Source of the DNA: Candidatus Heimdallarchaeota archaeon | Lineage (GTDB): Archaea; Asgardarchaeota; Heimdallarchaeia; Hodarchaeales; Hodarchaeaceae | Assembly (NCBI GenBank): GCA_020353515.1 | Contig: CP070695.1 | Coordinates: 3,774,277-3,838,276 of the forward strand | Length of the DNA stretch: 64,000 bases | Direction of reading: 5' to 3' | Shown here: piece after piece, positions 13,100-29,906 of the stretch | Layout of the letters: the number at the start of each line of letters is the position of its first letter | Position numbering within the stretch: position 1 is the first letter of the stretch | The notes under the pieces: model-generated | Databases searched by the model: none | Told to the model about the DNA's origin: nothing | The model's input: only the letters and a program-made list of their open reading frames with translations | Made by a program: the position numbers and the translations under genes

Positions 13100-15801
13100 A
13101 GCTAGAAGTAAGGATGCCCAATATGAAATTCTTAACACGTATTTGGTTTAAGAAGCTTGTGAGAGATCTTGCACGTCATAAACTTTTAACTTTTGCTTTA
13201 ATTTTGCTGTGTTTTTTTGGGACTGGATCTTTTTTAGCTTTGAGTATGGGTTATGAAAACCTCTATTCGTCATATAAGCGCATTTACCGACAGACAAATT
13301 TTGCTGATGCAGAATTTTTTACACTTAGTGATAACTGTTTCAACACAATTGAACTTGATGACACATTGACGAATTTTACAATAAGGTACGAAAAGGAAAT
13401 CCAAGCCATTAATTTTCGATTGATAACAGGGACTGGTTATAACGTAACCAGTTCAATTGGAGGTATAGAGAGACAATTTTTAGCAGGAGGTCGTGCGATT
13501 GGAATCGAATGGCCACAACAAGAAGAAAATCGAATTAATGATTTGATATTTACCAGTAGTTCATACTCTAATTGCTTTTCTCAAGAGAATTCTGTTTTAT
13601 TGGAATCACATTTTGCTCAAAAATTCGATATTGAGAGGGGAGATACTCTGACGACAAGGATATTTAACCAAACTTTCGATCTTATCGTCCAAGGAGTTGT
13701 TTTTAGCCCAGAATATCTAGTTATCATTCCATCAAAACACGATTTTCTCCCTACAAGTGTTTTCGGAATAATATACTTACCTATTGAAAGATTACAAGCC
13801 TACACAAACCTTACAGGACTCGCAAATAATCTACTTGTAAAAATGTCTTCAGGAGTGAATATTTCCACCCGTAACCATATAATAGAAGAACTAGCTGAAG
13901 TACTTGATGAGTCCGCTAAAGGTGTTTTCGCTCCTCCTGTAATGCAAGAAGACCAGATTTCAAATATGGCACTCCGATTAGATTTAGAGACATTTGAAGA
14001 AGTAGCTTTAACCTTACCAATAGTCGTCTTGGGGGTTGCAGCAGTCTCAATTTACATTACTTTAGGTCGAACTGTTCAAAGTCAAAGACGGAATATTGGT
14101 ATTGCTTCAAGTTTAGGTTATTTCCCCAACGATATCCTTTTTCACTTTACTTGTTTTAGTTTACTTATTGGTGGGATAGGCAGTATTCTAGGTGTTGGTT
14201 TTGGAATCATTGTTTCTGGTGTGGTTACTTGGGTTTATTCTTACTTTATGCGATTTCCCCAAATAATTGAGATTCAATTGCAACCTCATCTTATATTCAT
14301 AGCCTTAGTAACTAGTTTAGGGATAAGTTTGCTAAGTGGAGCTATTCCTGCATGGAATGCAAGTCGAATGACCCCCAGAAAAGCTCTTCAAACCATGTTT
14401 GTTACTGAAAAAGGTTCATATTCCATTTTTGAGAAAATTCTCTTCGTTAAATCAATTGGATTACGCTTAGCAATACCTCTAAGAAACCTCTCTCGGAAAA
14501 AAGGACACACTATAGCTACAATGACTGCAATTGCAGCTGCAGTTATGATCATCATAGTTTCTTTTGCTTTTATTGATTCAGTAACAGCGGGAGTAAATCG
14601 TCAGTTCAATGAAACCTCCCAGTATGATCTGATAGTAAAGTATGAAGGATTAAATTATTTCGATTTGGGAGTAAAGAATGATGTGACTTATATTCAGAGT
14701 TTACCAGGAGTAGTAGCTGTTGAACCTGTATTACAAATACCTTCATCAATTAAAACTGGAGGAAGATCACAAGGAGTGTTAATAACAGCTTGGAATAATT
14801 CAAATCCTACTACTCATAGATTTCACTGGTCTTCGTCTCAAGATACGTTATTACCAAACAATAGTATTGTTGTTTGTTCTGCTTTGGCCCATCAGTTCAA
14901 TATTAAGGTTGGTAACGAGATAGAGTATAATTTACCTTTTATCAAATCTTATATGGAATACGCTTACGATAAAGCTGAAGAGATATGGAACGAAACCTCT
15001 TTTTTGCATGGAATCGAGTTCGCAAGAAATGAAACGCTAGATTACATAAAAGATCTAATAAAACGAAATACAGAAAGTATCTCTTTCTCAAAAAGTGTAA
15101 GTGAAGACATTATTATTACTCATGAATCTATTAGAGTTTCTGGAATTTCAAAGGAAATTTGGGGAAGCATGGTATATACTACCCTTCAAACTATAACTAG
15201 TAATCTTGGTATAGATATGTTTAAGTCAGGATTAGACATTGACTTAACCCCCACCTCACAATTGATTTTGAAAGTCAGCCAAGCTTCAAATGTAACTCTG
15301 TTAGAAGAAATTAAAACATCAATTAGTCAGTTAGAGGGAATTAGATCAATTGAATTCAGTTATGATTTTCATCAGGCGGTAGATATACTGATGGCAGCTT
15401 TTAATGCAGTTATTCTAGTGTTCTTAATATTTGCATGCTTATTAGCGGGAGCTGCTATCTTCACGACTATCTATCTGAGTTTTCAGGAACGACAACGAGA
15501 AATTGCAACAATGTTAACTCTTGGACTCTCCGATAGAGAGTTTTTATCCATCTTAACTGTAGAAAATCTCAGTCAGGGCATATTAGGCATACTACTTGGA
15601 ATCCCACCAGGCCTTTGGATTGCTAGTTGGATTTTAGATAATGTTCTACGTCTTTTCTACTTTGAAATCATCATACTCCCTACAACTTGGATATTGATAT
15701 GGGTCGGAGTCATTGGTGTTATCCTGATTTCCCAGATCCCAGCGTATTATTACGGTGTAAGACTCGACCTAACTGTTGTAACAAAAGAACTATCATCTTA
15801 G
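13093..15801 (+). CDS. ABC transporter permease (FtsX/MacB-like, duplicated)
   Basis: Two FtsX-like halves (QRRNIGIASSLG; RQREIATMLTLG) with large extracellular loops; overlaps the ATPase gene. Confidence 0.9.
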   Translation: MVKLEVRMPNMKFLTRIWFKKLVRDLARHKLLTFALILLCFFGTGSFLALSMGYENLYSSYKRIYRQTNFADAEFFTLSDNCFNTIELDDTLTNFTIRYEKEIQAINFRLITGTGYNVTSSIGGIERQFLAGGRAIGIEWPQQEENRINDLIFTSSSYSNCFSQENSVLLESHFAQKFDIERGDTLTTRIFNQTFDLIVQGVVFSPEYLVIIPSKHDFLPTSVFGIIYLPIERLQAYTNLTGLANNLLVKMSSGVNISTRNHIIEELAEVLDESAKGVFAPPVMQEDQISNMALRLDLETFEEVALTLPIVVLGVAAVSIYITLGRTVQSQRRNIGIASSLGYFPNDILFHFTCFSLLIGGIGSILGVGFGIIVSGVVTWVYSYFMRFPQIIEIQLQPHLIFIALVTSLGISLLSGAIPAWNASRMTPRKALQTMFVTEKGSYSIFEKILFVKSIGLRLAIPLRNLSRKKGHTIATMTAIAAAVMIIIVSFAFIDSVTAGVNRQFNETSQYDLIVKYEGLNYFDLGVKNDVTYIQSLPGVVAVEPVLQIPSSIKTGGRSQGVLITAWNNSNPTTHRFHWSSSQDTLLPNNSIVVCSALAHQFNIKVGNEIEYNLPFIKSYMEYAYDKAEEIWNETSFLHGIEFARNETLDYIKDLIKRNTESISFSKSVSEDIIITHESIRVSGISKEIWGSMVYTTLQTITSNLGIDMFKSGLDIDLTPTSQLILKVSQASNVTLLEEIKTSISQLEGIRSIEFSYDFHQAVDILMAAFNAVILVFLIFACLLAGAAIFTTIYLSFQERQREIATMLTLGLSDREFLSILTVENLSQGILGILLGIPPGLWIASWILDNVLRLFYFEIIILPTTWILIWVGVIGVILISQIPAYYYGVRLDLTVVTKELSS

Positions 15802-16909: not shown

Positions 16910-19489
16910 CTAGGATATCTCGAAAAATGATTGGAGGTCAGTGATTAGAGAATACGCATGTTTTACTGCATCCCTAGTTTCATTACAAGTAATTTTGATA
17001 TGGATCTCACCCTTTACTGGCGAGGTAATGTTAACAAGCGCTGTACCCAAAGAATTTAGACTGTTTGAAATCACACTGCGTATCTTAATTTTAGTAATAA
17101 CCTCTTTGTCTCCAGTCATTGTTATGTCTCGCCATGGATCACCCCATGATGGACCTCTAGGTTCGCCATGAGTTTTCATCTCAAGGGTAACTTTAGGAAA
17201 GTCATCACGTTTTGAATGGCCACTCATTATAATCTGCTTGTTTTCAAACTCAATTTTGATTTTCTTCATCAATCCCGAGTAAGGAATAAGATAAACAATA
17301 AGACCAGTATCACTTGGTTCGTAAATCAGATCTTGGACACGATATTGGACAGAAGAAAGCAGGGACATTTTCTCCTCGTCCACGAGGTTCTTTCCTTTTT
17401 GAAAAGGTTCTTTTTTAGGCAAAGCAGCAGACACAAAATCTACTGGTTTCTCTATTACTGGTTTCAATGTGGGAAGATCTTTAGATGGTTCAATACGTTC
17501 ATGAGAAACAGCTACTTTTTCCAATTCGTGATCTGGTGGTATATATCTTTCCTGAATTGTTGTCTCTCTAATTAAAGGTACCTTCCTTTGCCTATTGCGA
17601 TAATAACCAAAATAAGCAAACAAGACAATCATTGCTAGCAAAATAAACAATCCCAGTACAATAAAAGAGATAAGAATAAGATCTATAAGAAAATAGAATC
17701 CATTATAAGTAGTCTTATAATGAGAGATAATCTCAACGGTAAATCCCTCGGAACAGGTTGCTACAATTTTGATAGCATAAATAGAATCAGTTGATTCTAT
17801 ATTTGCAGTATCCCAATTATATGTTGTATTAGTAAGATTAGAAGCAAGGGGTATCCAAGTATCTCCATCTAGTGAATAATAGATTGAATATGTGGTCTGG
17901 TGACCCAGTGAATCTAAAGCAGCTGTCCAGCAAATAGTAACAACACCTGATGACATACTTAATTCCTTTGGATGAACAATGGTCGGTGGAAATAGCAGGT
18001 GTGTGTTTGGACTAGCAAGAGGAGAATTATCGTATGAATAGGTATAACCAGGGATACTGTAAGAATTATCAAGAATTCCATCCCTATTGTTATCAGGGCT
18101 AGTTAAATCGCTCCAATAATTATAAGTAAATGTGTTGTTGTCCCCATAGTTAAACACATGACGATTTCCACTATTGCTTATAAAATAGTTGAAGATAAAG
18201 TAGTTGTTGAGCGAGTCTTCAAGGTAAACACCATCACGACTATTATTACTCACCTTATTACGGGTAAAAACACTATTATTAGTATGTTCCATGTAAATCC
18301 CCCAATAATTACCATCCATTGAATTATTAATAATCCTCAAGTCAGTACAGTAGTGAGCAATCAGACCGACAGCTGAATTATCTAATTTTTGATCCCTGAC
18401 TTCAATTTCAGTACAATTGATTAAAATCACTTGTCCTACCCCCACAGGAACAATTTGATCCTCAATATTTTGCCAAAAAAGTAGTGACTTGCCATTTACA
18501 ATATTATTAGATACATTGGTTTGTAATATCTCTTCAAAACGACCGCCATAAATATAAAGACCATCTTTGACAAATGTATTGTTAATGATTGTATTATCGC
18601 TAGAATCACTTAAGAAGAGACCCCGTTCATTATCATTGAAGGAATTGTTAACAACGGTAATATTCTCAGATAATCGGAGATAGGCTCCTCGAAAATTGTT
18701 GGAAATGGTATTATTATAAATATTGATGTCTGAACTAAAAGCTGTTACTAAACCAACGGAAAAGCCAGCTAAGTTTTGACCTGTAACTTCAATAGAGGCA
18801 CAATTTATTAGGAAAATTTGCCCCGCACCCATGGGGATAGTTCTTCCCGAAACACCTTGCCAGAAAACTATAGGGGCACCATTTACGGTGTTTTCAGATA
18901 CTTCAGACTGTATAAATTCACTGAATTCTTCACCAAAAAGATATAACCCGCCAGTTATTAATGTGTTTGATGTTATAATGTTATTTCCAGAATAATAAAG
19001 TGAAATTCCGTAAATATTATCTGAGAGCGTATTTTCAGTCACTTCAATATTCTCACTGTAACATAGACGAATTCCTTCCTCGCTATTAGTTATATCATTG
19101 TTGGAAACTTCCCCATTTGTAACATTATGAAGATGTATTCCGTAATATCCATTATCCAATCTACAATTACTGATTCTGAAATAGATATTAGTTCCCCGAA
19201 TATCAATCAAATTTTCAGAACCAGAACCAGTAATTTCGTAACCAGAAATCACATAGGGATTTAGTGCTGTACCTTCTCCAGGCCAGCCTTCTGTATTCGC
19301 TTGATTGCTAAAATCGTTATTTCCATTTATATAAATGGTTGCATGTTCTACATGTGTTGTTGATATTTCTTTATAGGAATTAATTGCAAAAAATCCTTGG
19401 GTACAGTTAAAATTAGATAGAGGGTGGAACCAAAGATGTACTAAGACTAAAAGAAGGAAAGCCTTCTTCATCGTCACACCTGATCCCAA
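16910..19489 (-). CDS. Single-pass surface protein: signal peptide, NosD/CASH beta-helix, Fn3-like domain, TM, cytoplasmic domain
   Basis: MKKAFLLL signal; GI.L..S.N..I..N repeats; W..A.DS.GH...YS Fn3-like unit; TM LIDLILISFIVLGLFILLAMIVLF followed by a basic stop-transfer segment. Real start probably 19471 or 19477. Confidence 0.85.
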   Translation of the reverse strand: MGSGVTMKKAFLLLVLVHLWFHPLSNFNCTQGFFAINSYKEISTTHVEHATIYINGNNDFSNQANTEGWPGEGTALNPYVISGYEITGSGSENLIDIRGTNIYFRISNCRLDNGYYGIHLHNVTNGEVSNNDITNSEEGIRLCYSENIEVTENTLSDNIYGISLYYSGNNIITSNTLITGGLYLFGEEFSEFIQSEVSENTVNGAPIVFWQGVSGRTIPMGAGQIFLINCASIEVTGQNLAGFSVGLVTAFSSDINIYNNTISNNFRGAYLRLSENITVVNNSFNDNERGLFLSDSSDNTIINNTFVKDGLYIYGGRFEEILQTNVSNNIVNGKSLLFWQNIEDQIVPVGVGQVILINCTEIEVRDQKLDNSAVGLIAHYCTDLRIINNSMDGNYWGIYMEHTNNSVFTRNKVSNNSRDGVYLEDSLNNYFIFNYFISNSGNRHVFNYGDNNTFTYNYWSDLTSPDNNRDGILDNSYSIPGYTYSYDNSPLASPNTHLLFPPTIVHPKELSMSSGVVTICWTAALDSLGHQTTYSIYYSLDGDTWIPLASNLTNTTYNWDTANIESTDSIYAIKIVATCSEGFTVEIISHYKTTYNGFYFLIDLILISFIVLGLFILLAMIVLFAYFGYYRNRQRKVPLIRETTIQERYIPPDHELEKVAVSHERIEPSKDLPTLKPVIEKPVDFVSAALPKKEPFQKGKNLVDEEKMSLLSSVQYRVQDLIYEPSDTGLIVYLIPYSGLMKKIKIEFENKQIIMSGHSKRDDFPKVTLEMKTHGEPRGPSWGDPWRDITMTGDKEVITKIKIRSVISNSLNSLGTALVNITSPVKGEIHIKITCNETRDAVKHAYSLITDLQSFFEIS

Positions 19490-22215
19490 GGTTTTGGTAT
19501 CTCAAGAATGGTTGTAATCAAAGTAATTGTTTCTTGAAGAACTCTTTTCTCTTCATCAAAGAATCTGTCTACATCAAAATCAACTAAAAACTTCAAAGTT
19601 CTTTTTAACATATTGCGAAAAACGTTTTCATACAATTTAGAGTTCAAAAATAAATTGATCTGTGAAGCTAACCAATCACCCCACTCTTTCAGTTCCTTAT
19701 TTACAGCACCTAACCTTTGACTTGCCTTTAATAGCTCATTTAATAAATCTGGAAGCTCTGGTCGTTGAGGTTCAACCATCTGAAAACTTTCTTCTGGAAT
19801 TCTGAATGTGGTACGAAGATCCTCAGTCAGTCTCTTCATCTTGTTATAGAACATTCCAGCAGAGACGCTTCCTACCAGGTATCTCTTTTTCTGTGTAGAG
19901 AACCAGGATTTCTTTTTATTCCATGCTAATAGTTCTTGATTGTTTTTTGGTTGAAAGGATTGATTAGAAAAGATATAATCAAAAACTTCAATGGCTTGTT
20001 TTAACGACTCACGATCCTCAGTTAACTCAAATGGTTCTCTACGGAGCTGCTTACCCATAAGAGGAACTTCAGCTTCTTGTATAACCTTTGGAACAGGTTC
20101 AATCTCTATATCAGTAGATTCATTCACCAATTTTGAAGATTTCACGCCTTTAATCTCTTCCGTGACCACTACCTGCGTACCTGTTCCAACATCATTTTTA
20201 GTCACGACCTCTTTGGTCATAAATTGTAGTTCAGAATACGTTCGTGCTCCTAAGTCTTGCGCTCGCTGATATGATTTGTAATCAGGAAATCTATTTTTTT
20301 CTACTATTTTTGCAGTAGCTAAATCAGGGGCTCCCAGATGACGTATTAATTTTAGATCAGAATAATTCTTTACTCCTAGATCCTGACCTTGTTTATAGGT
20401 TTGATAATCAGGAAATCTCCCTTGTCGAATTTTTTCCGCAGTAGCTAAATCTGGGGCATCAAATTCTTCAACTAAACGCAACTCTGATATATTAGTAGCT
20501 CCAAATGATTTAGCTTTTTCATATTCTTTAAAATTGCGAAATCCTCTAATTCTTATTTTTTCAGCGGTTTCGAAGTCAGGAGCTTCATATTTATCGATAT
20601 ATTGTAAGTCTGAGTAATCTTTAACTTCTAACTCTTGTGCCCGTTTATATGACTCGTAATCAGGAAATTGGCCCTTTTGAATTGCATTCGCAGTCGTTAG
20701 ATCAGGGGCCTGGAATTCTTCAACTAAAAATAATTCAGAAACAGAGGAAGCACCAACAGTCAGAGCTTTTTGGTAAGTTTCAAAATGAGTAAATCCACCC
20801 TCTTTAATTTTCTCAGCTGTTATTAGATTTGGAGCTCCAAGACGATCGATAAACTCTAATTGGGAATATGTTTTAGCTCCTAGATTTTGTGCTCGATGAT
20901 AGGTTTCAAAATTTGGAAATCTTCCTCTCTTCATTGCTTTTTGATCACTAGTAGTCATCTCAGAAACAGGTTTGTCTTTTATAGGAGATTCCTGAGAAAC
21001 AGAAACTTCAATTTTTTCCTTGAGTTCGAGCTTATCTATGGGAATTTTAGCGTGTTCGGATCCAATCCAGCTCTTATATCCGCAAAACGGGCAGGGAGGG
21101 TCTATCATCCCTTTAATTACCATAAGAGATTCAAATTCTCTTATTTCAACCCCTCGCAGACAACGGGAACAAAATACAGATTGGTCAGTTATTATCTTAG
21201 TCCCTGACAGCATACTATACGCACTAATCACTCCTGTTAAAACGGTGTTTCTCATGTTCTTTGCGATATGGACAACACGAACTCTCTGCGGATAAAGAAC
21301 TCCAAGGCAGAAGAAAAAGAAAATGATGATCAAAAGCTCTGCTTTTAGTATAAGGGGATCTACATTGGGAACGGGAATATCAATTATAATGAGATAGAGA
21401 ATTATTGCCATTAACCCAAGCCAATGGAGATTATTCCAAAGTCCAATTAATGATCGCGCTATTAACTTGGGTAATGTTTCTATAAAGAAAATCCCAATAC
21501 GTTCTAAAACGAATCTAGAGGATTTTGTTATCCAACCACCAAATCTTCGAATACGAGTTCCTAATTCCTTAATTCCTAGTCCGAGATATCTGAAAAATCC
21601 TCTACCAATGGTTCCTATCAGCTGTCCGAGAGCAGAGAGAGCCTGTCGAATTCCACCAGCCTTTATCCATTCTTTGAAAATAAAAAACTGGTCTACTATT
21701 TTTTGGTCAAGTTCTGTGGCGCGAGTTGTAAAACCAATAATCATGGTGAATACGCCAGCTATGATCATGATTATGTAAATAAACTCAGCATCAGATCCAT
21801 ACCAGATTATATTAAGAAGAAATGTTATAAAAATAAGTACAACACCAACATATGCGATAATTGCCCCAAGTGCACCCCATTCGGTATATTCTCTCCAACT
21901 TAACACATCAATGACTAAACCACCAAACAAGATAAGCAGAGTAATCCCCATAACCGCGGTTACCAATCTTGATCTCACAGGATCAGGAATGGGAAGTGCA
22001 GGATTTTGAATCATAAACTGTACAAACAGACCTATGAAGAAGATTATAACTCCAATAATTGTGAACTTTGAAAAGGATATCAATTCTGTAACTGATGCTT
22101 CTTTAAGCTTTCTGGCTTTTGGTAATTCTTGCTGTGTAGATAGTTCTGATTCTTTTAAGGTGGCCTTGTTCTCTTTAGTAATTTTATTTTGTAACTTTTT
22201 ATCATCTATAGCCAT
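19474..22215 (-). CDS. Multi-pass membrane protein with C4 Zn finger and 42-aa tandem repeats
   Basis: About 6 TMs, amphipathic helix, CSRC..CPFC, ~5.7 repeats. Confidence 0.8.
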   Translation of the reverse strand: MAIDDKKLQNKITKENKATLKESELSTQQELPKARKLKEASVTELISFSKFTIIGVIIFFIGLFVQFMIQNPALPIPDPVRSRLVTAVMGITLLILFGGLVIDVLSWREYTEWGALGAIIAYVGVVLIFITFLLNIIWYGSDAEFIYIIMIIAGVFTMIIGFTTRATELDQKIVDQFFIFKEWIKAGGIRQALSALGQLIGTIGRGFFRYLGLGIKELGTRIRRFGGWITKSSRFVLERIGIFFIETLPKLIARSLIGLWNNLHWLGLMAIILYLIIIDIPVPNVDPLILKAELLIIIFFFFCLGVLYPQRVRVVHIAKNMRNTVLTGVISAYSMLSGTKIITDQSVFCSRCLRGVEIREFESLMVIKGMIDPPCPFCGYKSWIGSEHAKIPIDKLELKEKIEVSVSQESPIKDKPVSEMTTSDQKAMKRGRFPNFETYHRAQNLGAKTYSQLEFIDRLGAPNLITAEKIKEGGFTHFETYQKALTVGASSVSELFLVEEFQAPDLTTANAIQKGQFPDYESYKRAQELEVKDYSDLQYIDKYEAPDFETAEKIRIRGFRNFKEYEKAKSFGATNISELRLVEEFDAPDLATAEKIRQGRFPDYQTYKQGQDLGVKNYSDLKLIRHLGAPDLATAKIVEKNRFPDYKSYQRAQDLGARTYSELQFMTKEVVTKNDVGTGTQVVVTEEIKGVKSSKLVNESTDIEIEPVPKVIQEAEVPLMGKQLRREPFELTEDRESLKQAIEVFDYIFSNQSFQPKNNQELLAWNKKKSWFSTQKKRYLVGSVSAGMFYNKMKRLTEDLRTTFRIPEESFQMVEPQRPELPDLLNELLKASQRLGAVNKELKEWGDWLASQINLFLNSKLYENVFRNMLKRTLKFLVDFDVDRFFDEEKRVLQETITLITTILEIPKPWDQV
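20209..20925 (-). repeat. Intragenic 42-aa (126-nt) tandem repeat, ~5.7 copies
   Basis: Units start GRFPNF, GGFTHF, GQFPDY, RGFRNF, GRFPDY, NRFPDY; the five complete units end in GAPNL/APD[LF].TA..[IV]. Confidence 0.9.
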
Positions 22216-25200
22216 TATTTACCACCTCTGTCAGATTCAATGCTGTCTGTACTACTTAAGAGAGATTTAAGCCGCATATTTTCTTTCTTAAGGGCAACAA
22301 ACAAAAAGATCACTATACCCACAACAATGAGTGCTGCCCCAAGTGGAATCAAGAAAGGAGAATTAGCAAAAAAACCAAGTAAATTCCTTTCGTAGGTTCC
22401 CCATTGAATTATGCTTGCAAGAAAGGCCAAGACTCCTAAGATATCAATTCTGAGGAAGAATTCACTTATTTCAACACCAGATGGATCCACAAAGCCAGAA
22501 AGTAATACGATAACTCCATAGAAAGACACCGAAATAGCTAGTAAGATAAGAATTATGGGGATTGTCAAATCTATTGTTGTACGGAATAGCAAGATCAGTT
22601 GGTTTCCTAGCTTTCTCATAAAATCTCCGAGGGCATAAAAGGCTCGTTTAAATGCATCCTTGATTGCATGAACAGTACGAAGGAGAGCATCCCAAATCGC
22701 CTGTAGAGTATGAATAATGAAGTGATTAACTTTATGGAACCAAGTAGCATAAAGAATGACTAAACCACTTCCTATCAATAACCATCCAAGTGGCTCTTGT
22801 AGCCAGACTAGCCCTACAATAAGGGATAGAATACCAAGACACGTTGTGGAGAAGCGGATAATCTCGATATAGTATGTTTGGAAGAATTGGACTATCGTAT
22901 TATAAGTATCCTTGAGAAATTGGAAAAATGCTCTTAGTGCTTGACCAATAGCGTGCATCAGTTGTTGAAATGCATTTCGTAAAGTGATAGCTGATTGTAA
23001 GACAAATTGATTGACCTGATGGAACCACGCAAGGTAAAGAAGAAGAATACCACCAAGAATCAGCACTAATCGAAAATCAAAAAGCTCCCTTGAGGGAGGT
23101 AATAATCCAGCTAGAATCAGAATACTAGCGGTAATCGTTGTGACAGCTCTTAGAATATAAATACGGTGATCCCAAGCATATTGGAAAAAAGCAGCAATCG
23201 AATTCGTAACTGCAACGAGGAATTTATGAACTGCATTAGCTGTCTGGACCAAAGCGTTGCGAATTGCAATACTCAATTGTTTGAAAGCTAGGTTGACCTG
23301 ATGGAACCAGGCTACATAGAGAAGAAGAACACCAGCCAATATCAAAAACAGTTCAAGTCCACTTATCAAAGACATATCGTACATTCTATAGAAGAGTAAT
23401 AACAGACCAATAGAAGTCATGATTGAGCCAGAAATCGTCATTATTGCTCGGATTATGGCAATACGGTGTTCCCAAATAGAATGACCAGCCTGAATAAGAG
23501 CATTTATAGCTGTAACAAAGAAGTTTTTGATATCATGTGCAGTGTTCACAATAGCGTTGCGAATAGCCAAGAGGGATTGTTTAACAAAATGATTGACTTG
23601 ATAAAACCAAGCAGCGTAAAGAACACTTAGTCCAGCAATCAATAGAACTAGCTGAATTCCAAACTGAAGCTGTTCAGGAGAAATCTCTAGAAAAGGAACA
23701 ACTACAAAACTTACAAGGATCATTAGTGGGCCAAGAATGGTGGCAAAAGCCCGTAGAATCACAATACGATAAAACCAAATGGTGTGAAGAGCTTCAATTA
23801 CTGCCTCCTTAACTTTTATGAGAAAGTTATATAGCGCATGTCCTGTGAGCACAAGTGTATTCCAAATAGTAATTGCTGACTCTTTAACGAAGTGATTGAC
23901 CTGATTAAACCAAGCTATATAAAGAATAACGATACCAAACAATAAAAATAATAGTTCAAGGGTCTCAGACATCCATGGTACGAATGCAATGGTAAATCCA
24001 AGCATTGATATAAAACTGGTAACTGTTACAATAAATCCAGCGGTCGTTAGAATAGCTCTGGTGATAATAATATGATGATACCATATCATATGAATAGTTT
24101 GGATAAATGCATCTTTTACAGCAATGAAGAAGTTTTTGATGGCCTGACCAGTAAAGATGAATGCATTCTTGATAGCTATAGCTGTTTTGATCACTAGTTG
24201 TTTGAGCTCGTTTCTCCAGACGGTTCCATTGACAACAATGCCAATAACTATTAATCCTCCAGAAAGCCAAAGAATAAGAAGAAGATCCTGTGAAAGTAAC
24301 AGAAGGATTCCATAAAGTATCAGCACAGTGCTGAGAGTCGTTGTAACTCCACGGGAATTACTATGACGATCAGGAATATACCAAATCGCGACGCTAACAA
24401 TATAACCTGATAATAGAAAGAAGAATGGGCCATAAGGAAAGGCACTGATAGTGTTCCACGTAACAACAAGGCCATATACCGTGAAGCTCAAAGCACCTAT
24501 CGTGATTAACTGTCGGTAATAAGTTGTGAGAAACTGGGCAGTTGTGTTGATGGTGTACCCGATCGCATTTTTCAACGCAATAAGGATGCTTTTAAACGAC
24601 TGATAGATCTCTATTCGCCAGATCCATCCATTAATTGATATTCCCATAACAATCAAGAAACTTGAAATCACATAGGAAAGTTCATCAGGCGAAACAGGGG
24701 GCGTTAAAAGTAATCCTAAGAGTAAGATCCCCCACAGTACCACAGTAATACTTAGTGTGGTGGTTACCCCCCGAAAATAGGCATGACGATCAGGAATATG
24801 CCATATCGCAACACTTATCGCAAAACCTCCTAGAAAGAAACCTAAAGGTAATGGATCAAAGAAGCTATCTATTACTAATACATCCATGAGGAGAGGATTG
24901 AACAACTTTGTAAATTCAAATAAAAAAGATCCTAATGTAAGGAAGCTTACGCCAACAGTTGTAGTTATTTCTCTGTAATAAGTACGGAAGAACCAAACAA
25001 CTGTTTGAATTGTTCGTTTGACAGTATAATTAATGTTATCAAACCAAACTCGATAGAAAAGTAGTAATCCAGTCATAGGAAAAGAAATTGAAAAGAAAAA
25101 CCAATCAGGAATAGATTGTGTCAGTGCTTGAATTAAACCAATAATTATCAATAATACACCTATTAAAGACGCAAAAACTTGACCTAATGTTACAAAACCC

Positions 25201-26072
25201 TTGCTAAAATGGCTTGTAACCTTCATCTTGAATATATATAAATCTAGATAAACTATTGCTAATCCTATGACCCCAGATATGAAACTGAGTAAGAAAAAGT
25301 TTGAATCAATAAATGGTGCAAGTATAATTAGTATGAATCCCAGTCCTAAACTTAATTCAAAGATTCTAATGATTTCAATCCTGTATCTCCAAACTGTGTG
25401 ATTAATTTGACGGAACCAGGAACCCCACACGAGTCCCAATCCAATTCCTCCAATTATTAAGCCTCCAAATGGATCGCCTGGGAAAACAAAGATTGTTAAT
25501 ACACCCCATTCAACAAAGAACAATACAAGAATTGATAAAAAACTCCAATTAACTAAGAAAACTCCGACAACAGAAATTGTATAGCGAATAATAACCTCAA
25601 AATTTATTCTGAACCAAAATACCAGAGGTTCATCTATTCGAGTTGTCTCTGCAAAGAAACCAATAAATGTTAGAAGCAGTCCTAAAACCAGTAGAGGGAT
25701 AAGAATTACTAGCTGAAGAGCAACAAGTGACGAAACACTGCATAAGAATACAACAAACAATCCAAAGAAGCCCATATTCCCGCCTAAATTAGTTGATTTG
25801 TTTCGTTTTTCATTAACCCAACGTAACTGGAAAAAACCAAGGAAAATACCTGCTAAAAAAACAAGTATGAAGACGAAAATCAACATAGGAGATAATATAT
25901 TAGTGTAAACTTCGAAATCTGGTAGATATATTTGTACAACGTTTACTCCTAGGAGTCCGATTACTATCACGGATGCAAGCCGAACTAGATGGCGAATCAC
26001 ATTCTCCTGATAAATAGGTTCAGTTGGACTAAATTCTTCTACATCTGGTGCTCTTTTTTCTGTTTCAATCAT
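22215..26072 (-). CDS. Giant polytopic membrane protein of repeated TM-hairpin + amphipathic-helix units
   Basis: 1285 aa, hydrophobic throughout; recurring LY..WF.[QK]VN and duplicated AIW[HY]IPDRH...RGVTTTLS. Confidence 0.82.
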   Translation of the reverse strand: MIETEKRAPDVEEFSPTEPIYQENVIRHLVRLASVIVIGLLGVNVVQIYLPDFEVYTNILSPMLIFVFILVFLAGIFLGFFQLRWVNEKRNKSTNLGGNMGFFGLFVVFLCSVSSLVALQLVILIPLLVLGLLLTFIGFFAETTRIDEPLVFWFRINFEVIIRYTISVVGVFLVNWSFLSILVLFFVEWGVLTIFVFPGDPFGGLIIGGIGLGLVWGSWFRQINHTVWRYRIEIIRIFELSLGLGFILIILAPFIDSNFFLLSFISGVIGLAIVYLDLYIFKMKVTSHFSKGFVTLGQVFASLIGVLLIIIGLIQALTQSIPDWFFFSISFPMTGLLLFYRVWFDNINYTVKRTIQTVVWFFRTYYREITTTVGVSFLTLGSFLFEFTKLFNPLLMDVLVIDSFFDPLPLGFFLGGFAISVAIWHIPDRHAYFRGVTTTLSITVVLWGILLLGLLLTPPVSPDELSYVISSFLIVMGISINGWIWRIEIYQSFKSILIALKNAIGYTINTTAQFLTTYYRQLITIGALSFTVYGLVVTWNTISAFPYGPFFFLLSGYIVSVAIWYIPDRHSNSRGVTTTLSTVLILYGILLLLSQDLLLILWLSGGLIVIGIVVNGTVWRNELKQLVIKTAIAIKNAFIFTGQAIKNFFIAVKDAFIQTIHMIWYHHIIITRAILTTAGFIVTVTSFISMLGFTIAFVPWMSETLELLFLLFGIVILYIAWFNQVNHFVKESAITIWNTLVLTGHALYNFLIKVKEAVIEALHTIWFYRIVILRAFATILGPLMILVSFVVVPFLEISPEQLQFGIQLVLLIAGLSVLYAAWFYQVNHFVKQSLLAIRNAIVNTAHDIKNFFVTAINALIQAGHSIWEHRIAIIRAIMTISGSIMTSIGLLLLFYRMYDMSLISGLELFLILAGVLLLYVAWFHQVNLAFKQLSIAIRNALVQTANAVHKFLVAVTNSIAAFFQYAWDHRIYILRAVTTITASILILAGLLPPSRELFDFRLVLILGGILLLYLAWFHQVNQFVLQSAITLRNAFQQLMHAIGQALRAFFQFLKDTYNTIVQFFQTYYIEIIRFSTTCLGILSLIVGLVWLQEPLGWLLIGSGLVILYATWFHKVNHFIIHTLQAIWDALLRTVHAIKDAFKRAFYALGDFMRKLGNQLILLFRTTIDLTIPIILILLAISVSFYGVIVLLSGFVDPSGVEISEFFLRIDILGVLAFLASIIQWGTYERNLLGFFANSPFLIPLGAALIVVGIVIFLFVALKKENMRLKSLLSSTDSIESDRGGK
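22564..24236 (-). repeat. Intragenic ~94-101-aa repeats (WF.QVN units)
   Basis: DNA anchor TT[GA]AC.T[GT]AT..AACCA at 23896, 23593, 23293, 23011, 22726 (spacing 303/300/282/285 nt). Confidence 0.85.
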
Positions 26073-28996
26073 ATCTGACTTACTCCTTCTTCACTTTTTC
26101 GACTCAGTGCCTTACTGAGTCTCCTCCCGAAGTATACTTCAGGAATAATCGGTATTAATGCTAATCCAACAATGAATAATGAGAAATCTGGTGGAGGAGG
26201 TGGAGTATTGTGTACGGAAAATACTTCCCCAAGGATATTCTCAGAAGTTAATCCATCTGAACTGGTTGTTACAACTTTTATTTTATAATTAGCCCCATCG
26301 GGGACAGTGGTGGTGTTCCAAGTATAAGTGGTTGTAGTTAAGTCTGAGACTATCGGAATCCAAGTTGAACCATCATCTGGGGAATAATAGAGTGAATAGG
26401 TGACCTCTTGACCCAATGAATCAGTAGAGGCCGCCCATTGAATTGTAACCATTCCTTTAAGGGATTCTTCCCCAAAAGAAGTTGAAATTATCGGAGCTGT
26501 AATGTAATGTATCATAAATGAGCCATCAGAAAGATCCACAGCGGTTAATCCCTCAGAACAAGTTGCTATAACTTTGATTGTGAAATTGGTTCCTGTTGCG
26601 AGAACTGAAGTGTCCCAATCATAGCTACTTACATCTAAACTTGAAACTAGACTATTCCAAGTATTTCCACCATCAGACGAATAATACACAGTATAGGTAA
26701 CATCGTGGTTTAGTGAATCAGATGAGACCGACCATTGAATGGGAATAGTTCCATTAAGAATTTCCCCGCCATTAGGAGATAAAATGATCGGTTTAGAAAG
26801 CTCATTATGGACAGAAAACGTCGAACTGTAGATATCCTCAGAAATTAAACCTGCAGAACAACTTGCAGTAATTTTGATTAAAGAGGATGCACTATCGGGG
26901 ACATTGGTTGTGTTCCAAACATAATTTGTCATGTTCAAACCAGAAACAACTGGGATCCAAGATGAACCATTATTTGAGGAGTAAAATACTGAATAGGTGA
27001 CATCTTGACCCAAAGAATCAGTAGAGAGCGCCCATTGAAGAGAAACTGTACCTTTTAGGGGATCACTCCCAAAGGAAGTCAAAATGGTAGGTGGGGTAAT
27101 GTAATGTACCATAAATAAGCCATCAGAGACATCATCAGCTGTTAATCCCTCTGTACAAGTAGCTACAACTTTTATCGTGAAATTTTCCCCTACTCTAAGA
27201 CCTGATGTGTCCCAATTTAGACTAGGTGTATTCAAACTTGAATCAATTAAAATCCATGTGTTCCCATCGTCGATTGAATAATATACAGTATATGTAACAT
27301 CATGGCCAACTGAATCAGGCGAGGCTGACCACTGAATGGGAATAGTTCCATTGATAATTTCCCCACCATTAGGAGACAAGATAGTCGGTGAGGAAAGATA
27401 ATTATGAATAGTAAATATTCCATTAGATGTATCCTCGGCTGTCTCTCCCTCTGAACAGTTAGTAATAACTTTGATCAAGTAAGTTGACCCATCTGCAACG
27501 CTAGAAGTGTTCCATAAGTAATTGGTTGTGTTTAATCCAGAAGCCAAAAGCTCCCAAGTGAGTCCATTGTCCGCTGAAATGCTTATTGAATAAGTCACTA
27601 CATGTCCTTTTGAGTCAATGGCTGGCAACCACTGTATATCTTCGGTCAAGGTGTAGACCTCGCCCCCATTAGGTGTTAGAAGAGCAGGACTCGTAAGAAT
27701 ATCCACTACAGCACTAGGATATTGAGAAGTTAATGGATACGAGTCTTCGCCTCCCCCAATCCCATAGGGGTTATCTACAATACCATCAACATCAATGTCT
27801 GGACCTGTCCAGTCACTCCAGTGATTAAACGCAAAGATATTATTAATATACCCCTCATTTAATGCTTGAGAATCACCTCCACTGTTTTCAACGAAATTGT
27901 TCCAAATAATTGTATTAAAACTTGTAAGTGAACTTAAAACAAGACCATAATAGGAACTGTTGGTTAAATTGTTACTTGAAATGTTATTATAATTCGAAGA
28001 ATATTCTAAAGAAATTCCGCTCCCAAAATTATCATAAATATCGTTCCCAGCTAATATACTATTTGATCCACCAAAGTCGATACCATACCCTCCATTGTTA
28101 TATATGACATTTCGTTTGAAAACACAAGAATCAGAACGAGCTCGAATACCCCATCCGTTGTCATGAACAAAGTTTCCGATACATACGATATTCGGAGAAC
28201 CAACAATACTCATTCCAGATCCCATGTTTTCAAATACTCGATTATAACCAATAACAGTTTTTTGTGTTGATCCAATGAACAATCCTTGATCGGTGTTAAA
28301 CTTCACTGTATTGTTGTAAACATAAACCTCTTTTGTTTCCCCAATGCCCAATGCCCCATGTCCACCACACCCAGAAACCGTATTATTGATAATTGTGTTA
28401 TTCTGCGAATATCCTGTCGAAATTCCCCCGTCATTACAATTAGAAACAGTATTATTCCCAATAAGGATTTGATTAGAGGAGTCTACCGTAATCCCACCAC
28501 CGTCAATATTATAAACTGTATTATTTGAAATAATTCCATTTGACACATTATAGAAGTGAATTCCTTCAGGTGCAAAATTTAATCCGTTAAGAATATTACT
28601 TCGAACACAAAAATAAGCTGTCGTACCGCTGATGCTGATCAAACTCTCACTTGAAGCAGTAATACTAAAACCTTCAATTAAGTAAGGATCATCAATTGTC
28701 CCTGATCCTGGAAATCCTTGTATAATAAACTGGTTGTTCGAGGATATAGAAATAGGATCGTGCTCTATAAGATTAGAATGATAAGTTTTTAATCTCATAG
28801 ATTGAGGAACATCGGTATTCTCTGAAGGAGTACAAATTCTCTCAATACATGAAACAGGCTTATACATTACTTGAACTGGTACATTAAGACTATGGCATAA
28901 TACCATAGTAAATATAATTAGAAATAAATAAAGTAATTTATTTCGGTTAAACAAGATTTTTTTCAATATTATCCCCTTTTTCCTCAAAAACTCCAA
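26069..28996 (-). CDS. Membrane-anchored surface protein: signal, NosD/CASH beta-helix, five Fn3-like repeats, C-terminal TM
   Basis: GSGTIDDPYLIEG, Asn-ladder repeats, NHWSDWTGPDIDVDGIVD, PPPPP linker then TM. Confidence 0.87.
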   Translation of the reverse strand: MEFLRKKGIILKKILFNRNKLLYLFLIIFTMVLCHSLNVPVQVMYKPVSCIERICTPSENTDVPQSMRLKTYHSNLIEHDPISISSNNQFIIQGFPGSGTIDDPYLIEGFSITASSESLISISGTTAYFCVRSNILNGLNFAPEGIHFYNVSNGIISNNTVYNIDGGGITVDSSNQILIGNNTVSNCNDGGISTGYSQNNTIINNTVSGCGGHGALGIGETKEVYVYNNTVKFNTDQGLFIGSTQKTVIGYNRVFENMGSGMSIVGSPNIVCIGNFVHDNGWGIRARSDSCVFKRNVIYNNGGYGIDFGGSNSILAGNDIYDNFGSGISLEYSSNYNNISSNNLTNSSYYGLVLSSLTSFNTIIWNNFVENSGGDSQALNEGYINNIFAFNHWSDWTGPDIDVDGIVDNPYGIGGGEDSYPLTSQYPSAVVDILTSPALLTPNGGEVYTLTEDIQWLPAIDSKGHVVTYSISISADNGLTWELLASGLNTTNYLWNTSSVADGSTYLIKVITNCSEGETAEDTSNGIFTIHNYLSSPTILSPNGGEIINGTIPIQWSASPDSVGHDVTYTVYYSIDDGNTWILIDSSLNTPSLNWDTSGLRVGENFTIKVVATCTEGLTADDVSDGLFMVHYITPPTILTSFGSDPLKGTVSLQWALSTDSLGQDVTYSVFYSSNNGSSWIPVVSGLNMTNYVWNTTNVPDSASSLIKITASCSAGLISEDIYSSTFSVHNELSKPIILSPNGGEILNGTIPIQWSVSSDSLNHDVTYTVYYSSDGGNTWNSLVSSLDVSSYDWDTSVLATGTNFTIKVIATCSEGLTAVDLSDGSFMIHYITAPIISTSFGEESLKGMVTIQWAASTDSLGQEVTYSLYYSPDDGSTWIPIVSDLTTTTYTWNTTTVPDGANYKIKVVTTSSDGLTSENILGEVFSVHNTPPPPPDFSLFIVGLALIPIIPEVYFGRRLSKALSRKSEEGVSQI
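26207..27697 (-). repeat. Five ~100-aa Fn3-like domain repeats
   Basis: Units start PALLTPNGGE, PTILSPNGGE, PTILTSFG, PIILSPNGGE, PIISTSFG; units 2-3 are duplicated as 4-5. Confidence 0.88.
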
Positions 28997-29216: not shown

Positions 29217-29906
29217 GTGATAGGAATGGATTTACTACCTGACTTGGAGCCTACTCTTGAAATTTTAGATAAAATCGTTGCATTCGAAGAAAAAATGGAA
29301 ATTAATAGAATGTTGCTGTTTATAGCACTTGCTGGATTCATTACCATAATTGGAGGCTGGATTGAATATGTTTGTTATCACTTCCTGTCTATAGATTCAA
29401 CTTTCTTCATTCTCGGGTTAGCCTCCAATAGTGATCTAGTTTTACTTCTTGGTTTATGGCTTATCTACCTTTTACCCCTTCTTGGGGTTATTATCTTTAC
29501 TACTGGATTATCTCCTGGTTTTATCAATTGGAATAAGGCCTATCGAAAAGTAGGACTAATCATAATTGGATTATTTGTGCTTACCCATTTATTAGTGATC
29601 ATCTTTGGTAGTACCAATCCTCAATTAATACCTACAATATGGGGAATTACCGTTTCTCTTGGTTTTTTACTCACAAGCAGAATTCTTTATTTAGAAACGA
29701 AAAATAAACAGTTACAATCAGGGTTATTTATATTTGGAATATCTGCCTTGGTTCTTGGATTTTTTTCTTCATTAGTTATCTATCCAGGATCACCAGAATT
29801 GGCAATGTTTCTTTATTGTACAATTTTTGGTCTAATTTTAATTGGGGTGAGTATGACCGCTTATTGGAATGTAAGCAGGTTAACTGCAAAACAAAAGGAA
29901 GCTTAA
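29217..29906 (+). CDS. Hypothetical membrane protein (~6 TM)
   Basis: Hydrophobic segments; directly upstream of a wHTH regulator. Confidence 0.75.
   Translation: MIGMDLLPDLEPTLEILDKIVAFEEKMEINRMLLFIALAGFITIIGGWIEYVCYHFLSIDSTFFILGLASNSDLVLLLGLWLIYLLPLLGVIIFTTGLSPGFINWNKAYRKVGLIIIGLFVLTHLLVIIFGSTNPQLIPTIWGITVSLGFLLTSRILYLETKNKQLQSGLFIFGISALVLGFFSSLVIYPGSPELAMFLYCTIFGLILIGVSMTAYWNVSRLTAKQKEA

Follow-up and report, generated by a model that had tools for sequence, protein, structure and literature searches.

The window, a stretch of 64,000 nucleotides of Hodarchaeaceae DNA, carries on its minus strand the gene of a very large polytopic membrane protein (P0001), which overlaps its two neighbours. 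The genes and the internal features of P0001 are the following (aa, amino acids; TM, transmembrane):

26069..28996, minus strand: P0002, upstream surface protein comprising a beta-helix and Ig-like repeats, anchored by a C-terminal TM helix; overlaps P0001 by ATGA
22215..26072, minus strand: P0001, whole gene; 1285 aa, ATG start, about 30 predicted TM helices, N-in/C-in
25578..26072, minus strand: conserved N-terminal four-TM module (aa 1–165), with invariant columns in alignments A1, A2 and A5
24282..25577, minus strand: divergent upstream units (aa 166–597), with short linkers of 8, 28 and 39 aa and two IPDRH..RGVTTTLS four-TM units
22503..24281, minus strand: six canonical units (aa 598–1190), from the repeat-unit analysis
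24057..24218, minus strand: linker helix 1 (aa 619–672), this and the next five from the periodicity and moment analysis
23751..23912, minus strand: linker helix 2 (aa 721–774)
23448..23609, minus strand: linker helix 3 (aa 822–875)
23148..23309, minus strand: linker helix 4 (aa 922–975)
22854..23027, minus strand: linker helix 5 (aa 1016–1073; 57 aa between anchors)
22578..22742, minus strand: linker helix 6 (aa 1111–1165), running into the C-terminal module
22215..22502, minus strand: conserved C-terminal module (aa 1191–1285), with an outer loop bearing a hydrophobic segment, the last TM helix and a basic tail
19474..22215, minus strand: P0003, partner gene, 913 aa; its ATG overlaps the P0001 stop (TAATG)
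16910..19489, minus strand: P0004, downstream surface protein with a beta-helix, one TM helix and a cytoplasmic tail; overlaps P0003 by 16 nt

Repeat units of P0001

The initial annotation had described a 1285-aa protein encoded at 22215–26072, in which TM hairpins alternate with long amphipathic helices in a tandemly amplified array. The open reading frame (minus strand, ATG start) is as claimed, and this anatomy is real, as judged from repeats, topology and hydrophobic moments. The number of units has to be revised, however: the “at least five” units of about 95–100 aa are indeed repeats according to both BLASTP and HMM searches, but the canonical ones are six and measure 95–101 aa. Each runs in the order TM_b, WFxQVN junction, hendecad linker, WxHRIxIxRA junction, TM_a and short acidic outer loop, and pairwise BLASTP comparisons yield identities of 36–48% (E = 3e-23 to 3e-9), while the unit HMM detects nine copies in P0001. 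The anchor W[FI]xx[VI]N occurs at aa 153, 219, 343, 721, 822, 922, 1016 and 1111, and degenerate WRxE forms at aa 485 and 619. The divergent upstream units with shorter helices were likewise recovered, as three or four degenerate units, and so was the duplicated IPDRH..RGVTTTLS unit (aa 405–545 vs. 546–700; E = 2e-18). In the N-terminal module, two near-invariant loops read RW[VI]NExRNKSTNLGG and TRIDEPLV[FY]WF.

No tandem repeat was found at the DNA level in the P0001 gene, which implies that its unit copies are old. Recent unit duplications are found in P0006 (79 exact residues at an offset of 101) and in P0014 (72 exact residues at an offset of 132), and P0006 and P0007 are 99% identical except for one 101-aa unit. 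More generally, the number of units differs freely among P0001 orthologs.

Topology and linker helices

Lysine and arginine residues number 68 in the proposed cytoplasmic segments of P0001 vs. 4 in the outer loops, which points to about 30 TM helices, an N-in/C-in orientation and a cytoplasmic location of all linkers. The hairpins are 35–49 aa long, including acidic outer loops of 1–8 residues, several arms having just 14–17 aa by the boundaries chosen; since the loops carry Asp, Glu or Arg, they should reach the outer interface. Covariation recovers the hairpin pairing, both as a TM_a(i) x TM_b(i+1) block (z = +9.5) and as an antiparallel diagonal (z about 6). At the low power of these alignments (Neff 84–151), there is no contact between the TM helices flanking one linker (block TM_b(i) x TM_a(i), z = -6), no fold-back diagonal within linkers (z from -1.2 to +1.3) and no signal between consecutive linkers, all these negatives being also confounded by sequence separation. 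AlphaFold predicts the linkers as uninterrupted helices when run on aa 672–1020, and breaks some of them mid-way in the full-length model; both models have a pLDDT of about 65 and a pTM of 0.26–0.34, which makes their tertiary packing unreliable.

In the canonical units, the linkers measure 53–57 aa between anchors and their hydrophobicity shows a periodicity peaking at 3.64 residues. As the initial annotation had supposed, they are amphipathic: the hydrophobic moment is phase-coherent across the full 54 aa (0.27–0.49), with 18-residue maxima of 0.41–0.65. Their mean hydrophobicity is 0.6–0.7 (Fauchere-Pliska scale) and their net charge +2 to +5, while the hydropathy scan, which bears on the opposite view that the linkers span the membrane, reveals no linker window at TM level. 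A soluble surface would not be as hydrophobic as these long linkers, and both their polarity and their length exceed what a TM span would allow. Both of their ends bear interfacial aromatic/arginine motifs.

The linkers are made of 11-residue repeats (hendecads, three turns each), with occasional steps of 18. When their 11-mers are pooled, the hydrophobic arc comprises positions 5, 9, 2, 6 and 10, and the polar arc positions 4, 8 and 1, chiefly occupied by Asn, Gln and His; small residues are conserved at positions 5, 9 and 2, and Asn at positions 4 and 8. Across the family, linker lengths fall in the series 42/53/64/75, 17/28/39/50 and 24/46/57/68, and the 14 different values share one helical phase at a period of 3.63 residues (R = 0.78, reached by 0 of 5000 random sets). 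Linker length changes in evolution only by whole helical turns. The 11-residue steps can also come from inter-repeat recombination without selection, a point against the scaffold reading preferred below. As to helix breakers, the 89 family linkers (4907 residues) contain 3 Pro and 54 Gly, and 43 of them have neither.

As far as sequences tell, the hendecads of phage tape-measure proteins (PHROG 1272 and 58) are the only detectable resemblance of the family. The match to phrog_1272 has an E-value of 1.1e-7 (31 bits) for P0001 and of 2.4e-14 (53 bits) for P0015, whereas hhalign against a bona fide tape-measure protein (P0081) gives a probability of 74% over only 44 columns (four hendecads), at the repeat level. 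This likeness is direction-specific, with an hhalign score to tape-measure hendecads of 47.8, which drops to 20.4 when the sequence is reversed and does not exceed 18.6 when it is shuffled. Both results would suit linkers lying off the membrane, in a straight cytoplasmic hendecad coiled-coil bundle or sheet, with hairpins that merely anchor a docking platform (e.g., for the repeat region of P0003 or the cytoskeleton). The small residues at positions 5, 9 and 2 and the Asn at positions 4 and 8 suit helix packing as well, and the structural matches are generic long helical hairpins and bundles. Yet covariation is absent both within linkers and between consecutive ones, and a regular bundle fits poorly with linkers as unequal as those of P0008 (64, 53, 64, 42 and 39). 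Moreover, the interfacial motifs at both linker ends also speak against it, and the hydrophobicity of the linkers, combined with few acidic residues, is unlike that of a soluble coiled coil. We retain such a bundle as a tentative alternative.

Distribution, genomic context and partner gene

The family is present in 13 of the 20 genomes of the window's own family (Hodarchaeaceae) and in 0 of 280 other Asgardarchaeota genomes; it is found only in Hodarchaeales. No relatives exist in Pfam, NCBIfam or the PDB: the whole of P0001 has no Pfam match at E 0.1, and four sub-regions and two orthologs yield nothing relevant to Reticulon (RHD, PF02453) or TB2_DP1_HVA22 (REEP/Yop1/DP1, PF03134) even at E 10, in agreement with the initial annotation, which had claimed no homology to these proteins.

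In three distant genomes, the P0001 gene occurs once and in conserved synteny amid housekeeping genes, without capsid, portal, terminase, tube or chaperone genes nearby. This context argues against reading P0001 as a tail tape-measure or pore-forming protein that has been domesticated or is viral to this day, in a region left over from a virus or a tail-like particle, as the PHROG matches of the family might suggest, along with the weak matches of P0002 to a tail-spike family (E = 2.8e-8) and of the partner P0024 to phrog_58 (E = 1.3e-4). Furthermore, neither a search of 2.9 million viral contigs (IMG/VR) nor tblastn against 50,697 phage records found a relative. Thirty TM helices that follow the positive-inside rule indicate a resident membrane protein, and the beta-helix match corresponds to a generic fold. 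We consider a viral origin of this kind very improbable. Just as improbable is a transporter, channel or membrane enzyme, the repeats of which would form a conduit. The many TM helices would be in line with it, as would the ABC/FtsX (MacB-like) pair lying at most 10 kb from the gene in all three genomes examined, but these ABC genes belong to a wider conserved synteny. In addition, P0001 matches no transporter or enzyme family, its orthologs vary freely in unit number, and its conserved residues (glycines aside) are located at interfacial junctions, not within TM helices.

The partner protein P0003 crosses the membrane with six helices and carries a basic amphipathic segment of 100 aa and a zinc ribbon (CSRC...CPFC), besides a cytoplasmic region of 42-aa repeats. 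Its homologue is adjacent, downstream and on the same strand in 12 of the 12 genomes having both genes on one contig, with 50–54% identity over 390 aa within the partner family. Complex prediction for P0001 and P0003 reached a score of 0.47, vs. 0.26 for the best of three controls, the runs sharing at least 51% of contacts and the partner having a pLDDT of at least 60. Of 80 solved complexes, 58 pass the mark used for these predictions, as do 2 of 110 mismatched pairs; those that pass with scores of 0.60 or lower are only 7 of the 80 solved complexes, but both of the mismatches. As modelled, the complex lends weak support to the pairing. P0001 may act jointly with this translationally coupled TM/zinc-ribbon partner, the long cytoplasmic repeat region of which could link it to cytoplasmic components.

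The other neighbours raise the question whether P0001 could be a molecular ruler, or a scaffold on which an envelope structure specific to Hodarchaeales is assembled. Unit number and helix lengths would then set the spacing or size of the surface proteins encoded nearby or of another envelope assembly, much as tape-measure proteins determine length in phages. The translationally coupled operon with beta-helix/Ig-like surface proteins would be in keeping with this idea, as would the C-type lectin protein that takes the operon position of P0002 in L003, the unit and 11-residue indels between near-identical orthologs (e.g., P0006 and P0007), the tape-measure-like repeat grammar with its 11- and 18-residue steps (cf. 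PMC3271669, PMC5099701) and the lineage-specific surface filaments of cultured Hodarchaeales (10.1101/2025.02.26.640444). Nevertheless, the surface-protein neighbours are not conserved, the operon position of P0002 being empty in L002. Considering also that no observed structure is tied to the P0001 gene and that no precedent was found for a ruler within a fluid membrane, such a role appears distinctly unlikely.

A candidate membrane scaffold and its known counterparts

Our preferred reading, to which we assign a probability of about 0.4, is that P0001 is a Hodarchaeales-specific integral scaffold, the cytoplasmic in-plane helices of which load one leaflet. On sequence grounds, its predicted function is probably that of a membrane scaffold or shaper, and curvature generation is plausible but unproven. 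Hairpin pairs are joined on the cytoplasmic side by one basic amphipathic helix of 39–75 residues. Each linker would form a single continuous rigid helix of 6–11 nm that follows the membrane interface on its cytoplasmic side, where the aromatic/arginine junction motifs would staple both of its ends, with the large aliphatic stripe towards the lipid and Lys/Arg at the polar–nonpolar boundary. Altogether, in-plane helix amounting to about 400 residues (about 60 nm) per protein would load the cytoplasmic leaflet, the outer face having just the 1–8-residue loops. All the long helices are cytoplasmic and continuous, which is the geometry required by a leaflet-asymmetric membrane shaper. Leaflet asymmetry and stiff, straight hendecad helices should make the membrane curve with its cytoplasmic leaflet convex, allow its curvature to be sensed, or stiffen and order it. 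Unit number and helix length are evolutionarily tunable, as in the phage tape-measure proteins sharing the repeat grammar. Two points count against in-plane helices: the small-residue stripe (positions 5, 9 and 2) also suits helix–helix packing, and in phage tails the tape-measure hendecads assemble into a coiled-coil rope rather than lying in plane. Moreover, cultured Hodarchaeales lack endomembranes, although they display protrusions and vesicles (10.1101/2025.02.26.640444), so that strong inward tubulation is not evident.

Membrane shaping in Asgard archaea (protrusions, vesicles, internal compartments) is a question that bears on how the eukaryotic endomembrane system arose. Hodarchaeales are the proposed sister group of eukaryotes, and internal compartments have reportedly been seen in one Heimdallarchaeial enrichment. 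This question has so far been approached mainly via homologues of eukaryotic proteins (ESCRT, Arf, actin), and the P0001 family would be a lineage-specific candidate that homology searches would not flag. Newly described here are its hendecad repeat grammar and tape-measure resemblance, its coupled partner gene and its restriction to one Asgard family. The design lends itself to tests (amphipathic mass on one leaflet, rigid whole-turn helices, coupled partner, tunable copy number), and Hodarchaeales strains are now in culture, with proteomes and tomograms (10.1101/2025.02.26.640444). Whatever its function, the architecture may serve membrane-protein structural biology and design, and the link to tape-measure repeats raises the question of virus-to-host exaptation.

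Like tape-measure proteins, P0001 has 11-residue helical repeats, occasional steps of 18 and interspersed hydrophobic segments, and its family shifts in length through repeat duplication or loss (PMC3271669, PMC5099701). It differs from them in its roughly 30 TM helices, with hairpins and linkers strictly alternating and a positive-inside topology, in its more hydrophobic and basic repeats and in its lack of lytic or baseplate-binding end domains, while its gene is cellular, single-copy and chromosomally syntenic, without tail module or viral relatives. The likeness may be due to shared ancestry or to convergence, which are indistinguishable at this level of similarity.

With Plin4, alpha-synuclein and exchangeable apolipoproteins, the linkers share an 11-residue periodic amphipathic helix; in those proteins, the 11/3 periodicity yields a straight hydrophobic stripe and a very long helix on the lipid surface (PMC5889406). 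Also shared with perilipin and synuclein 11-mers are the frequent Ala, Thr and Val on the non-polar face and the basic residues at its boundary (PMC5889406). However, perilipins, synuclein and apolipoproteins are soluble, peripheral, reversible and of low hydrophobicity, whereas the P0001 helices (0.6–0.7) are tethered in a protein of about 30 TM helices, which matches none of these families in Pfam.

Like Piezo, P0001 is a very large polytopic protein of repeated TM units. In Piezo, each unit comes after an in-plane amphipathic helix on the cytoplasmic side, and the membrane is bent by the array. A Piezo unit differs from those of P0001 in comprising four TM helices, with in-plane helices that are short, and P0001 is devoid of a pore module; the Foldseek match of its low-confidence model to Piezo1 (7wlu_A) is not significant (rank 13, E = 0.78, TM 0.08).

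Finally, the combination of TM hairpins with a cytoplasmic amphipathic helix is the known curvature-generating design of reticulons and REEP/Yop1/DP1, which tubulate membranes and need the amphipathic helix to do so, and P0001 pairs the same two elements. Where a reticulon or REEP has two hairpins and one short helix, a P0001 chain comprises about 15 of the former and about 10 of the latter, its helices being 39–75 residues long and stapled at both ends. The two reticulon hairpins are short (30–35 aa), hydrophobic and act as wedges, whereas those of P0001 have charged loops and hence probably span the bilayer. A bolder and rather doubtful extension of this comparison is a two-gene Hodarchaeales membrane-bending machine, in which a chain of hairpins and stapled hendecads, possibly an exapted viral tape-measure repeat, would expand the cytoplasmic leaflet and set curvature or the dimensions of tubules or vesicles, with helix length and unit number as an evolvable ruler. 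If true, the P0001 module would be an archaeal, non-homologous counterpart of the proteins that shape the ER.

Repeat units, topology and distribution

The gene running from 22215 to 26072 on the reverse strand starts with ATG and encodes a 1285-aa membrane protein (P0001), in which Leu, Ile, Phe and Val amount to 46% of the residues and charged residues to only 11%. Copies of its anchor motif, W[FI]xx[VI]N, lie at aa 153, 219, 343, 721, 822, 922, 1016 and 1111, with a degenerate form (WRxE) at aa 485 and 619. When units are compared with each other by BLASTP, E-values range from 3e-23 to 3e-9, the two units bearing IPDRH..RGVTTTLS match one another (E 2e-18), and a unit HMM recovers nine copies in P0001 and 349 across the family. 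These results confirm the repeated unit reported in the initial annotation, the count of which (at least five) holds and can be made precise: six canonical units of 95–101 aa each occupy aa 598–1190 and are preceded by degenerate units with shorter linkers. In a canonical unit, the order is TM_b, junction LYxAWFxQVN, linker, junction WxHRIxIxRA, TM_a and a short acidic loop, the linker being the amphipathic stretch between the two junctions and TM_a and TM_b the TMs flanking it. Tandem Repeats Finder detected no DNA-level tandem repeat, so the unit copies in this genome are old.

TM boundaries were placed manually, with the hydropathy profile and junction motifs as guides, yielding 30 predicted TM helices with the N and C termini both inside. 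Lys and Arg number 68 per 551 residues in the segments assigned to the cytoplasm vs. 4 per 160 in the outer loops, and all long linkers are therefore assigned to the cytoplasmic side, while the outer face only has loops of 1–8 residues, plus two longer ones. This topology agrees with the TM hairpins and long intervening helices that had been perceived in the sequence.

Neither Pfam nor NCBIfam provided a family for P0001 as a whole or for pieces of it searched at E 10, which upholds the choice made in the initial annotation not to claim homology to reticulons or REEP, and the family profile had no match at E 1 among all PDB sequences. Searching 1.84 billion representative proteins with this profile returned 64 clusters only. 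All members that bear a name are Asgard MAG proteins, for the most part with the label Hodarchaeales, Hodarchaeota or Heimdallarchaeota; a few were labelled Hermod or Odin by their submitters. In a survey of 300 other genomes across the phylum and the window's own, the family was present in 13 of the 20 genomes of the window's own GTDB family and genus group and in none of the remaining 280. P0001 is single-copy in its closed 4.94-Mb genome, and we found no published description of its architecture. Among orthologs, unit number and linker length vary, with exact recent unit duplications in two homologs, P0014 (72 residues at offset 132) and P0006 (79 residues at offset 101), the latter being otherwise 99% identical to a third homolog, P0007. 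P0006 and P0007, both from ENA metagenome contigs, differ by exactly one 101-aa unit, present in the longer one as a duplicate with 79 exact residues. The cause is either an assembly collapse/expansion or a very recent change of copy number in a natural population.

Linkers as probable extended amphipathic helices

The linkers are built of 11-residue repeats (hendecads), as established from a profile of 151 non-identical 11-mers cut in register from the C-terminal junction:

Residue preferences along the 11-mer
Positions 5, 9, 2: small residues
Positions 6, 10: large aliphatic residues
Positions 4, 8, 1: Asn, Gln or His
Positions 3, 7, 11: hydrophobic residues together with Lys, Arg or Tyr

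Drawn on an 11/3 helical wheel, the hydrophobic positions make up a single contiguous arc of ~160 degrees. In P0001 itself, linker hydrophobicity has a periodicity peaking at 3.64 residues, with a mean of 0.6–0.7 and a net charge of +2 to +5, and five of the six canonical linkers have a larger hydrophobic moment at 98.2 than at 100 degrees per residue, the sixth showing no difference. The moment remains phase-coherent across all 54 residues, in line with the amphipathic character first attributed to these helices. That they might instead span the membrane, a possibility also raised at the time, is not indicated, no window inside them reaching TM-level hydropathy.

Anchor-to-anchor lengths in 20 homologs fall into three series with a step of 11 (42/53/64/75, 17/28/39/50 and 24/46/57/68), and a period of 3.63 residues fits the 14 distinct lengths coherently (R = 0.78, a value reached by 0 of 5000 random sets). 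Changes in linker length are therefore confined to whole helical turns (by 4, 7, 11, 15 or 18 residues, for example); repeat recombination can explain the 11-residue steps but not the others. Helix breakers are scarce, the 89 linkers of at least 39 aa having 3 Pro and 54 Gly per 4907 residues, and 43 of them neither.

Mean-field DCA was applied to unit windows from the whole family (175 windows, Neff 151). The TM_a(i) × TM_b(i+1) block, which serves as the positive control for the hairpin, is enriched (z +9.5), with an antiparallel diagonal centred on the loop (z about 6). TMs flanking the same linker are depleted (z −6), and the fold-back diagonals of the linkers are flat (z −1.2 to +1.3, at the low power of 175 windows). 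Each linker thus behaves as one extended helix separating its two anchors, the DCA agreeing with the breakers and the helical phase. A perpendicular stalk made of a helical hairpin is disfavoured by the lack of a conserved turn, the 43 linkers free of Gly and Pro, and the missing fold-back covariation; struts bridging two membranes are rejected on the ground that linker lengths differ inside a single protein. Alternatively, the hendecads might assemble into a cytoplasmic bundle anchored by the hairpins. This is the main rival to helices lying in the membrane plane, and one that we consider rather doubtful: 98 two-linker windows (Neff 84) recover the hairpin again (z 7.2) and give no signal between consecutive linkers, bearing in mind that the power of DCA negatives is low and that sequence separation confounds them.

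AlphaFold2 models of full-length P0007 (78% identical to P0001; 53-row alignment; pLDDT 65.8, pTM 0.34) and of P0001 aa 672–1020 (pLDDT 65.4, pTM 0.26) are both all-helical and usable for secondary structure only, their tertiary arrangement being untrustworthy. In the shorter model, each linker is predicted as an unbroken helix that runs into one flanking TM and kinks at the other junction; in the full-length model, some linkers are broken, in low-confidence stretches. Nothing specific was returned by Foldseek against the PDB (best E 0.08, a designed toroid), VIA-align wide (best Z 7.8, generic helical hairpins) or the Atlas shape search (TM at most 0.28), and the ESM Atlas feature search gave no usable match. 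That this polytopic protein acts as a transporter strikes us as highly improbable.

A conserved partner in a variable neighbourhood

The window was compared with two other genome neighbourhoods, L002 and L003:

19474–22215 (−): P0003, the 913-aa partner of P0001; counterparts at L002:13495–16716 and L003:13324–14508
26069–28996 (−): P0002, surface protein with a NosD-like right-handed beta-helix, five or six ~100-aa Ig-like repeats and a C-terminal TM anchor
16910–19489 (−): P0004, surface protein with a NosD-like right-handed beta-helix, one TM and a ~230-aa cytoplasmic tail
29217–29906 (+) and 29927–30289 (+): 229-aa polytopic membrane protein and HTH_34 winged-helix regulator
12359–15801 (+): ABC ATPase and FtsX/MacB-type permease; counterparts at L002:18745–22865 and L003:16945–20321

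P0001 and P0003 overlap at TAATG, the stop of the former and the start of the latter, and P0002 and P0001 overlap likewise at ATGA (stop of P0002, start of P0001). P0003 features a very conserved N-terminal part of 390 aa, with six TM helices, a ~100-aa basic amphipathic stretch and a CSRC...CPFC zinc ribbon, and a cytoplasmic repeat region. In two distant genomes this N-terminal part retains 50–54% identity, against only 34–48% for the P0001 orthologs there, and the partner lies directly downstream on the same strand in all 12 genomes having both genes on one contig. Its C-terminal cytoplasmic part ranges from none (L003, 394 aa total) to ~680 aa of 42-aa repeats. P0001 and P0003 are a real, conserved, lineage-specific gene pair. 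The L002 copy of the partner has a second zinc ribbon at its end and a weak match to a tape-measure PHROG (E 1.3e-4).

Complex prediction with the N- and C-terminal modules of P0001 and P0003 aa 1–400 scored 0.47, vs. 0.26 for the best of three controls. Of 80 solved complexes, 58 reach the mark, as do 2 of 110 mismatched pairs; scores of 0.60 or under that reach it include only 7 of the 80 solved complexes and both passing mismatches. With at least 51% of contacts in agreement between runs and a partner pLDDT of at least 60, this lends weak support to a predicted contact between the two proteins. Homology of their N-terminal four-TM modules is not established by BLASTP (E 0.008 over 82 aa) or hhalign (17% probability, E 1.4e-3, collinear over 132 columns).

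Upstream, the surface protein differs between genomes, being a beta-helix protein in the window, a C-type lectin protein in L003 and absent in L002; P0002 and P0004, translationally coupled to P0001/P0003 in the window, are replaced or absent in other genomes. The divergent pair of the HTH_34 regulator and the 229-aa protein (65% identical between the window and L002) is conserved beside the module in all three genomes examined and may act on the operon as a membrane-linked regulator; a bacterial promoter/terminator scan was set aside, the host being an archaeon. The ABC ATPase and its permease, less than 10 kb from the module in all three genomes, may reflect plain synteny. About 2 kb from the module in L002, whose homolog P0015 is labelled Candidatus Heimdallarchaeota, are genes for an Arf/Ras-like small GTPase and for a 391-aa unknown protein (L002:6414–7971). 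In the L003 lineage, lipid head-group synthesis genes, encoding a CDP-archaeol synthase (CarS-like) and a CDP-alcohol phosphatidyltransferase (L003:6685–8484), stand directly upstream of the module, between it and the regulator pair; they are not taken as functional evidence because they are adjacent only in that lineage.

Comparison with tape-measure and membrane-shaping proteins

The repeat region matches tail length tape-measure families in PHROGs (phrog_1272, E 1.1e-7 for P0001 and 2.4e-14 for P0015), and a bona fide phage tape-measure protein (P0081), whose repeats read like those of P0001, is among the weakest matches of the profile search. Aligned to P0081 by hhalign, the linkers reach 74% probability over four hendecads:

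Hhalign scores of the linker alignment against P0081
Real sequence: 47.8
Reversed: 20.4
Fully shuffled: at most 18.6
11-mer blocks shuffled: 35–48

The two are therefore alike in a direction-specific repeat motif, and not in composition alone. Tape-measure proteins combine 11- and 18-residue repeats with predicted TM segments and evolve through unit duplication and loss (PMC3271669, PMC5099701). A remnant of a virus seems very improbable to us, since all three neighbourhoods are cellular and neither 50,697 phage records, searched by tblastn with the repeat region, nor an IMG/VR scan yielded a match or relative. P0001 and tape-measure proteins are alike in repeat motif only, in a context that is not viral for P0001, and we read this likeness as a shared repeat grammar, which might have arisen by ancient exaptation or by convergence. 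That P0001 serves some envelope structure as a ruler or scaffold, another role that a tape-measure-like repeat brings to mind, appears unlikely.

Our preferred reading, to which we give a probability of about 0.4, is that the linkers would lie in the membrane plane and load the cytoplasmic leaflet. Stapled at both ends, they would act as rigid helices along the cytoplasmic interface, so that ~400 residues, or roughly 60 nm of helix, would be inserted into one leaflet only. Such a load should favour bending in which the cytoplasmic leaflet is convex; alternatively, it might make the membrane stiffer and more ordered along the helix axes. Insertion of amphipathic helices is known to promote curvature, as in reticulons and REEP. 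Helices made of 11-mers, such as Plin4, are a precedent for insertion of this kind (PMC5889406). In the parts consulted of two recent reports, cultured Hodarchaeales display protrusions and vesicles and no endomembranes (10.1101/2025.02.26.640444), a Heimdallarchaeial enrichment displays internal vesicles (10.1101/2025.11.06.686947), and P0001 is not mentioned.

Compared with known systems, P0001 stands outside the reticulon, REEP and perilipin families, and probably outside Piezo as well. The analogy of design with reticulons and REEP proposed in the initial annotation is reasonable and now better grounded, whereas the membrane-shaping function that it suggests remains putative.
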